In this document: positions 32,524 through 32,975 of the stretch, one piece after another
How the letters are laid out: the number at the start of each line of letters is the position of its first letter
How positions within the stretch are numbered: position 1 is the first letter of the stretch
Assembly: GCA_964482825.1 (NCBI GenBank)
Contig: CAYZZG010000001.1
Coordinates: forward strand, 63,754-109,673
Source: an uncultured Gammaproteobacteria bacterium
GTDB taxonomy: Bacteria; Patescibacteriota; Microgenomatia; Levybacterales; UBA12049
Direction: 5' to 3'
DNA: 45,920 bases
Program-made: the position numbers and the translations under genes
Notes under the pieces: model-generated
Database searches by the model: none
What the model was told of the DNA's origin: nothing
What the model saw: only the letters and a program-made list of their open reading frames with translations

Positions 32524-32567
32524 AAAGGTACAAAGCTGCAAAGGTTCAAAGGTACAAAGTTAAAGTT
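32524..32567 (+). repeat. left inverted-repeat arm (GGTACAAAG-type) flanking the four-helix-bundle gene
   Basis: ggtacaaagctgcaaaggttcaaaggtacaaag. Complementary to 32932-32972 at its ends: 10 nt GGTACAAAGC and 7 nt TACAAAG. Confidence 0.7.
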
Positions 32568-32939
32568 ATGAAAGAAAAAAATGTTGTATATCATAATTTA
32601 AAAATTTGGCAAAAGTCAAGAAAGCTAGTATTAGTAGTGTATAAATTGACAGAAAAATTTCCTTCTTCAGAAATGTATGGATTAACATCGCAAATGAGAA
32701 GAGCTGTAATTTCAGTTGTTTTAAACATAGTTGAAGGTGATAGAAGAAGCTCAAGGAAAGAGTTTTTGAGGTTTTTAGATATAGCAGAAGGTTCCCTGAC
32801 CGAACTTGAAGCGTGTTTAGAGCTTGCATTAGATTTGGCATTTATCACTAAAGAAGAGTATCAACAAGTAGAAGACTTAAGAAAAGAAGTAGCAGTGATG
32901 ATTAGATCATTTATTAAGTCAGTTCAAAAAACTTTGTAG
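32568..32939 (+). CDS. four-helix-bundle protein (23S rRNA intervening-sequence protein family)
   Basis: 123 aa, LKIWQKS..L...Y..T..FP..E.YGLTSQMRRA.ISV..NI.EG pattern. Confidence 0.88.
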   Translation: MKEKNVVYHNLKIWQKSRKLVLVVYKLTEKFPSSEMYGLTSQMRRAVISVVLNIVEGDRRSSRKEFLRFLDIAEGSLTELEACLELALDLAFITKEEYQQVEDLRKEVAVMIRSFIKSVQKTL

Positions 32940-32975
32940 CTCTCTGCTTTGTTGCTTTGTACCACTGTACCTCTG
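32932..32975 (+). repeat. right inverted-repeat arm (CTTTGTA-type) flanking the four-helix-bundle gene
   Basis: ctttgtagctctctgctttgttgctttgtaccactgtacc. Overlaps the gene stop and abuts the rnpB 3' end. Confidence 0.7.

Follow-up and report, generated by a model that had tools for sequence, protein, structure and literature searches.

A gene for a four-helix-bundle protein, lying between an ABC transporter operon and the RNase P RNA gene of a member of the Patescibacteria, is enclosed by two tandem repeat arrays that are complementary to each other and fit its start and stop codons closely. Arms and gene together form a unit of approximately 460 nt, and arrays of the same design, each with words of its own, bracket most genes of this protein family in the same genome and most of the sampled relatives. 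By analogy with the intervening sequences (IVSs) of 23S rRNA, we read the locus, with moderate confidence, as a gene-in-a-stem cassette that would be processed by RNase III from an operon transcript. The window, i.e., the whole stretch of DNA that was analyzed, comprises 45,920 nt (C1:63754-109673) of genome G000, which has 978 kb in 95 contigs, 39% GC, and an estimated completeness of approximately 84%. Coordinates given without a contig refer to this window.

A four-helix-bundle gene in the loop of a predicted stem

Upstream of the cassette (32527-32982) lies a five-gene ABC operon, with one ATPase and four ABC-2 permeases. The last permease gene (31739..32521, plus strand; PF06182, E 1.2e-30) ends with the stop codon TAA at 32519-32521, and the cassette starts directly after it in the same orientation. 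Its 5' arm (32527..32559, plus strand), recovered both as a period-8 TRF array and by repeat search, is built of four 8-nt words, (NNNCAAAG)x4, and reads GGTACAAAGCTGCAAAGGTTCAAAGGTACAAAG in full; across the individual words, GGTACAAAG, CTGCAAAG, GTTCAAAG, and GTACAAAG, the CAAAG core is conserved. TRF assigns this array 4.5 copies of period 8 at 32524-32559. Eight nucleotides separate the end of the 5' arm from the ATG of the open reading frame (ORF), which has 123 codons (32568..32939, plus strand) and occupies the loop of the stem. The 3' arm (32932..32982, plus strand), also a period-8 array found by repeat search as well, overlaps with its start the last two codons and the stop codon of the ORF. 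Its complementary words are, in order, CTTTGTAG, CTCTCTG, CTTTGTTG, CTTTGTAC, CACTGTAC, CTCTGAAG, and CTTT; the core, CTTTGTAG...CTTTGTACC, lies at 32932-32963, and an extension, CACTGTACCTCTGAAGCTTT, reaches 32982. Both arms of the original prediction are real, but the left one is located at 32527-32559 rather than at 32530-32562, and the right one consists of 32932-32963 with its extension to 32982.

When the 5' arm is compared with the reverse complement of the 3' arm, the first 10 and the last 7 nt are identical and 25 of 33 positions agree overall, which bears out the match of 10 + 7 terminal nt and about two-thirds of all positions noticed earlier. The predicted duplex of the two arms has -36.6 kcal/mol versus -15.5 +/- 3.6 kcal/mol for 1000 shuffled versions of the right arm, all of which are weaker, and the arms are paired across the 370-nt ORF in both the MFE and the centroid fold of 32515-32990, in agreement with the proposal that the gene sits in the loop of a potential stem. 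Tiling of the whole window for sense-strand partners of the left arm returned, as the best ones, its own right arm at -36.9 kcal/mol and, at -47.2 kcal/mol, the right arm of a hairpin at 29.3 kb, described below. An extended inverted repeat of 57 nt (32503-32559 / 32947-33003, 70% complementary) runs into the permease gene and the RNase P RNA gene and was treated as a chance extension. Promoter and terminator consensus scans at the locus yielded nothing above expectation, which fits read-through transcription without proving it.

The encoded protein (123 aa, pI 9.2) belongs to the 23S_rRNA_IVP / TIGR02436 family, with clear matches to PF05635 (E 1.2e-37, 128.8 bits; cut-off 33.8) and TIGR02436 (E 2.7e-36, 124.1 bits; cut-off 24). 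The family is large and spread over many phyla, and we know of no function for it. Profile searches found no transposase or nuclease domain in the ORF. The nearest solved relative is XCC0516 (PDB 2GSC; E 1e-21), with five chains, and a pentamer has been stated for solved relatives of the family (PMC4990558).

On the other side, the cassette is followed by a divergent type-A RNase P RNA gene, rnpB (32995..33448, minus strand), which is convergent with it and has its 3' end 12 nt past the end of the 3' arm. The match to RF00010 (36.5 bits, E 1.5e-9) spans the whole model (1-367), including the universal motifs, at a score below the gathering score of 100. At gathering thresholds, Rfam gave no match across the window, and rnpB surfaces only under E-value thresholds, so that standard annotation would miss the gene; the alignment contains insertions of 66 and 38 nt. 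The assignment is supported by the conservation of sequence and position in relatives (nhmmer), which retain rnpB convergent to the same ABC operon.

Gene-in-stem design throughout the genome

Genome G000 holds 20 matches to PF05635, 18 of them above the cut-off. By eye, approximately 17 of the 20 genes are armed, with a tandem array upstream and a reverse-complement array downstream, each with its own word (e.g., GAAACGT/ACGTTTC, AGTATAA/TATACT, TTATTAG/CTAATAA, and TTTAAAG/TAACTTT); the three unarmed copies encode the longest and most divergent proteins. To quantify the arms, local complementarity between the flanks was computed for each gene on the basis of crude ORF calls. A score of at least 31 was reached by 13 of the 20 family genes versus 8 of 886 other ORFs (0.9%; Mann-Whitney p = 4e-10), for which the 99th percentile is 30. 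The paralogs are at most 62% identical and do not have arms in common; there are no near-identical family copies within G000 and no sign of recent transposition.

Other high scorers were three IS200-like Y1/RAYT genes with GC-rich palindromes, two small GIY-YIG genes, two TrpR/YerC-like genes, and nusG and recF, both of which sit between generic arrays. The Y1 (RAYT-type) genes (G000:C16:13627-14232, C8:17376-17996, and C25:8598-9269) are each bracketed by GC-rich REP-like palindromes. The two GIY-YIG genes, of approximately 95 aa (G000:C11:5762-6049 and C30:5646-5936), each have their own flanking inverted repeats and may represent another small gene-in-a-stem family.

Tandem arrays abound in this genome: TRF lists 931 rows, with period 7 dominant (335/931), and 585 arrays remain after merging of those with short periods. 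Complementary array pairs fall into approximately 48 gene-less hairpins, with gaps of 0-130 nt, and a cluster with gaps of 341-466 nt, and the latter hold the four-helix-bundle genes. Reversed, uncomplemented arrays proved too lenient as a pairing null for AT-rich repeats and were replaced by score thresholds and the gap distribution.

Two family copies deserve separate mention. The one designated L007 (G000:C26) lies between two co-oriented tRNA genes (1363-1435 and 1882-1953), with spacers of 40-47 nt, and hence within a tRNA transcription unit. The copy between thyA and folA (L004; G000:C36:8141-8455) has short arms and an in-frame TAA at codon 18, and is probably either a pseudogene or translated from a start further downstream.

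A gene-less hairpin of the same word family

The third module of the same word family noticed in the original prediction turns out to be a complete hairpin (29267..29346, plus strand; -32.5 kcal/mol, z = -5.05) with words of the type GCAAAG.. / CTTTGTAC.. and no gene between its arms. It sits between the genes for the ABC ATPase and the first permease, 3.2 kb from the cassette; TRF reports one array at 29270-29302 and another at 29309-29339. Of all sense-strand segments in the window, the right arm of this hairpin pairs best with the cassette 5' arm. The hairpin may represent either a cassette minus its gene or copied arms. In 8 relatives, the corresponding junction has no hairpin, and the stop codon of the ATPase is directly adjacent to the next permease gene. 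The last ATPase codons of G000 (..EPQSSKVA*) are encoded by the left arm (29262-29291, plus strand); given that the ATPase ends earlier in the 8 relatives, repeat DNA has been recruited as a protein tail in G000. The ATPase gene of G000 is followed by four ABC-2 permease genes (29357-32521, plus strand), whereas eight of the relatives examined have only two, matching the last pair; a few other relatives have a second, weak permease match approximately 1.6 kb upstream.

Across 15 genomes, with 14-60 kb analyzed in each, array density showed a nonsignificant trend, with 3.4 per 10 kb in genomes with 8-11 family genes versus 1.4 in those with none (p = 0.11). Genomes without a family gene still have gene-less heptamer arrays, at 0.5-2.3 per 10 kb.

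The same design with other words in distant relatives

Within the same order, the family is present in 88 of 121 genomes, at 1-13 copies each, with G000 being the richest (19 at E <= 1e-5). Of 29 loci from other genera within it, 11 have a score of 30 or more, and inspection by eye reveals further armed ones; the 3' arm frequently starts in the last codons. A second set of 80 loci was drawn from species genomes of Patescibacteria classes, Bacteroidota, Planctomycetota, Desulfobacterota, Elusimicrobiota, Verrucomicrobiota, Ignavibacteria, and Firmicutes. Pooled with the earlier loci, 69 of 122 are armed, compared with 1 of 122 when the flanks are reversed, and an independent metagenome sample gave 51/71 versus 0/71. 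Both samples together thus contain 120 armed relatives among 193 (reversed-flank control, 1/193), a share that applies to the closest kin of three G000 proteins rather than to a random draw from the family. The catalogue of family genes called for by the original prediction accordingly revealed flanking inverted repeats in 13-17 of 20 genes of G000 and in these 120 of 193 relatives, and the ground on which the prediction could have been given up, namely, that other copies lack such repeats, falls away. The arms are indeed of the same kind as the gene-less spacer hairpins, but this likeness leaves the association of gene and stem intact.

Among the 122 loci, arrays were detected on both flanks in 72, on one flank in 39, and on neither in 11. 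Period 7 is dominant among these cassette arrays, and period 8, as in the present locus, is in the minority. Measured on a set of 72 stems, the median distance from the end of the 5' arm to the ATG is 6 nt (IQR -2 to 22) and that from the end of the stop codon to the 3' arm is -0.5 nt; the arms are approximately 33 nt long, corresponding to approximately 4.7 heptamers. The words go with the protein subfamily, e.g., GAATCATGAAT with proteins ending in ..IRNS, and this correspondence extends across classes and phyla.

Cassettes also follow the orientation of their surroundings. The upstream gene is co-oriented with the cassette in 101 of 113 cases, versus a background of 73% in G000 (p = 1e-5), and both neighbors are co-oriented in 81 of 106, versus 54%. 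That cassettes are found in the carA-carB and thyA-folA intervals, as well as between two tRNA genes, indicates that they live within transcription units.

Filled and empty sites at the same junction

Twenty-one relatives, all from other genera, have an ortholog of the last permease, with at most 63% identity. A search for empty sites between the ABC operon and rnpB, as suggested by the original prediction, was successful: in G006 (L022), G015 (L030), and G004 (L034), only 10-14 nt separate the permease stop codon from the rnpB 3' end, with no arrays and no gene, whereas G000 has approximately 460 extra nt in this interval. The site is also filled in G020 (L028), where a 5' arm, GTACAAAG GTTCAAG GTACAGAG GTACAAG, is followed by a gene for a four-helix-bundle protein of 121 aa and a 3' arm, CTTTGTAT CTTGCAC CTTGTAC CTCTGAAC. 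The right junction is common to the filled site of G020 and the empty site of G006: the sequence after the G020 cassette, aataaaaatcctaggaag, is that found after the stop codon in G006, which defines the extra segment of G020 as exactly 433 nt. No target duplication was found at this filled/empty junction. Given that the relatives have either nothing or an orthologous cassette with the same words, arms and gene were gained or lost as one piece. In another relative (L209, G025:C4), two arrays of the heptamer TTAGATC, in direct orientation and 1.6 kb apart (oriented coordinates 4484-4524 and 6102-6135), flank the last permease gene and what follows it.

Since the ABC stop codon adjoins rnpB in the empty sites, the adjacency of operon and rnpB predates the cassette. 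The association with structured-RNA genes that had been suggested for this locus did not hold up. Only 2 of the approximately 17 armed copies in G000 have stable-RNA neighbors, rnpB here and the tRNA pair at L007, and ABC and rnpB are adjacent without a cassette as well. Thus, rnpB looks like an incidental neighbor, outside the cassette itself.

The cassette protein of G000 is 63% identical to its syntenic ortholog in G020 and 52% identical to the nearest G000 paralog; between the same two genomes, the flanking ATPase and permease are 66% and 57% identical, respectively. Only 6 of 23 fourfold-degenerate sites agree between the two cassette ORFs, indicating saturation, yet the arms share 16 8-mers, whereas null pairs share 0.3 on average and 10 or more in 0.27% of cases. 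Shared 8-mers and this null were used because gapped global arm identity is uninformative, with non-orthologous arms also reaching 72-75%. The preservation of the arm words despite saturated fourfold sites implies that protein and words are both constrained. Judging from these sequence comparisons, both have been under purifying selection since the split of the G000 and G020 genera, and the cassette copy in G000 is, by the same measure, old. The permease tree does not resolve G000 and G020 as sisters, and G002, the sister of G020, has no cassette, a patchy distribution that requires several gains or losses. The suggestion of a possibly mobile element therefore stands insofar as arms and gene behave as one insertion/deletion unit at an orthologous site; the lack of a target duplication, of an enzyme, and of near-identical copies, together with the age of the copy, speaks against it.

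A cassette possibly excised by RNase III

Ribosomal IVSs are the only experimental precedent for the design. The IVS of Coxiella, of 428 nt, has a 28-bp terminal stem that encloses the S23p ORF. Two or three tandem GACAGAT heptamers, variable in copy number, precede the ATG of this ORF, and it is at the first of them that RNase III cleaves the stem (PMC4990558). ORF-bearing 23S IVSs are also known from Leptospira (PMC4990558, citing Ralph & McClelland 1993), and RNase III cutting has been shown experimentally in Leptospira 23S rRNA too. The present cassette has in common with these IVSs the PF05635 ORF, complementary termini that close it in a stem, and a host that encodes RNase III, and with the Coxiella IVS in particular the tandem short repeats that form the 5' arm just before the ATG. 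The sizes are also close, 428-444 nt for the 23S IVSs compared with 433 nt for the G020 cassette and approximately 460 nt for the present one. The earlier description of the locus as an IVS-like cassette outside rRNA is well founded in these respects. There are differences, too. The 23S IVSs lie inside the 23S rRNA gene (helix 25 or 45), whereas the present cassette lies between a protein-coding operon and rnpB, and neither the window nor the 1.5-kb surroundings of the 20 family genes contained an rRNA match; the Coxiella words have 7 nt rather than 8; the Coxiella ORF is reported to be decaying and untranslated, whereas the present ORF appears to be under purifying selection; and the 23S IVSs are excised by RNase III, whereas for the present cassette such excision is a prediction.

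By this analogy, the cassette would have no promoter of its own and would be transcribed by read-through from the host operon. The arms would pair in the transcript, enclosing the ORF with its start and stop codons, and RNase III, the gene for which is present in G000, would cut the stem, as in the 23S rRNA of Coxiella and Leptospira, separating the cassette RNA from the host transcript. Such cutting would allow the insertion to be tolerated in operons, in tRNA clusters, and in rRNA.

Two tests on the mismatches within the arms bear on this scenario. In 123 stems (loci L001-L290), read on the coding strand, G:T mismatches number 125 and A:C mismatches 182 (p = 0.0014), and among isolated mismatches the counts are 29 and 49 (p = 0.03); the metagenome stems alone show no bias (59 versus 72). 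The commonest mismatches are A:A and T:T. On the coding strand of the same 123 stems, G exceeds C by 590:227 in the 5' arms, and the reverse is seen in the 3' arms. The excess of A:C over G:T, approximately 1.5:1, runs opposite to the pattern expected from a sense-strand RNA helix. The lack of G·U enrichment is unlike the trace that selection on a sense-strand RNA helix usually leaves. Furthermore, within the repeat unit, mismatches keep to fixed phases: the mean z over 61 ungapped stems is 1.6 (p = 5e-9), with 28 of the stems exceeding z 1.64 and none below -1.64. The present locus, with its imperfect stem (25 of 33 positions), fits this pattern, with the CAAAG core kept and the three preceding bases free. 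With mismatches at fixed phases, the stem breaks down into successive blocks of 5-6 bp, and what is conserved may be the word instead of the helix. Together with the long-term conservation of the words, the results of the two tests keep open the reading that the words themselves are recognized and that the arms are constrained by more than pairing.

Recognition of the words by the encoded protein is possible, if clearly less probable than the IVS-type cassette. The arms would then be rows of some four to five binding words, in RNA or DNA, for their own pentameric four-helix-bundle protein, for example, for translational autoregulation at the 5' arm, which covers the ribosome-binding region, and pairing of the arms would be secondary. 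The dimensions agree with this, as solved relatives crystallize with five chains (2GSC; pentamer in PMC4990558) and arms of approximately 33 nt offer approximately 4.7 heptamers, and so does the basic character of the protein. The fixed-phase mismatches would correspond to a conserved core and a free spacer, here NNN+CAAAG, and the absent G·U excess and the conservation of arm words in orthologs with saturated fourfold sites would be expected. The tracking of words with protein subfamilies across classes and phyla also points in this direction, but it is equally predicted by common descent of gene and arms. Moreover, word binding alone leaves unexplained why a second, reverse-complement array lies exactly at the stop codon, and gene-less heptamer arrays exist in related genomes without any family gene.

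We consider it unlikely that the cassette is an element acting at the level of DNA, with the inverted arrays serving as terminal repeats or as a foldback hairpin for recombination or replication enzymes of the host, and with intramolecular templating, instead of selection on RNA, keeping the arms alike. Such an element would account for the behavior of arms and gene as one indel unit with exact junctions, for the patchy distribution over the permease tree (filled in G000 and G020, which are not resolved as sisters, and absent from G002), for a mismatch spectrum that has no RNA signature and leans weakly to antisense-strand wobble, and for the gene-less hairpin of the same words 3.2 kb away. 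Nevertheless, the ORF has no transposase or nuclease domain, the filled/empty junction has no target-site duplication, and there are no near-identical copies, the paralogs being at most 62% identical with differing arms. The orthologs have diverged like the flanking genes (63% versus 57-66%), indicative of long vertical residence, and the strict fit of the arms to start and stop codons is unnecessary for a role in DNA only. Finally, that the arms are ordinary spacer microsatellite hairpins with a gene merely between two of them, as might be supposed from the 585 merged short-period arrays and approximately 48 gene-less hairpins of the same kind in G000, is extremely improbable given that 65% of family genes are armed versus 0.9% of others, that ORF and loop coincide to within a few nucleotides, that empty sites in relatives lack both arms and gene, and that distant phyla show the same design with other words.

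Relation to other repeat-associated systems

Heptamer arrays and convergent array pairs have been described in Xanthomonas (GGGAATC) and Nostoc, with no link to a four-helix-bundle gene (PMC4692102). Like the arrays of G000, whose units have 7-8 nt, the cyanobacterial STRR and Xanthomonas arrays are intergenic, consist of tandem 7-nt units, and often occur as close inverted pairs that can form hairpins (PMC4692102); in G000, unlike in the published reports on such arrays, a subset of the pairs encloses a four-helix-bundle gene with codon-level precision. Elements of the MITE/IS and REP-RAYT types resemble the cassette as short units with inverted termini that are present or absent at orthologous sites, and the RAYT genes of G000 are likewise bracketed by palindromes of their own. 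The cassette differs from such elements in having no transposase, no target duplication, and no near-identical copies, and in that its termini are tandem arrays that vary among copies. The Avd proteins of DGRs, which are basic and bind nucleic acid and the reverse transcriptase, have a homologous four-helix-bundle fold. However, the cassette ORF scores below the cut-off of the Avd model (NF033474; 41.2 bits versus 80), with no adjacent reverse transcriptase or template/variable repeat. Members of PF05635 also occur inside cas operons (PMC3936711). Our literature search found no published account of a general gene-in-repeat-stem design outside rRNA genes.

The locus described here links the PF05635 family, rRNA IVSs, and heptamer repeats with codon-level precision. 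To our knowledge, both IVSs and heptamer repeats are old features for which there is no explanation. What it adds is the comparison of filled and empty sites between genera with exact junctions, the conservation of arm words beyond the saturation of synonymous sites, and the two tests, absence of a G·U excess and phase-locked mismatches, that argue against a simple RNA-helix view of the arms. Since there are culturable carriers in Flavobacterium, Bacteroides, and Xanthomonas, the question is directly open to bench work. As a tentative and rather unlikely extension, PF05635 pentamers could be sequence-specific partners of tandem 7-8-nt words, such that cassettes, rRNA IVSs, and gene-less heptamer (STRR-type) hairpins would form one system, in which each subfamily would recognize, and perhaps maintain or spread, its own word array. 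If this reading were true, it would provide a function for a large orphan protein family and account for the excess of heptamer repeats in bacterial genomes.
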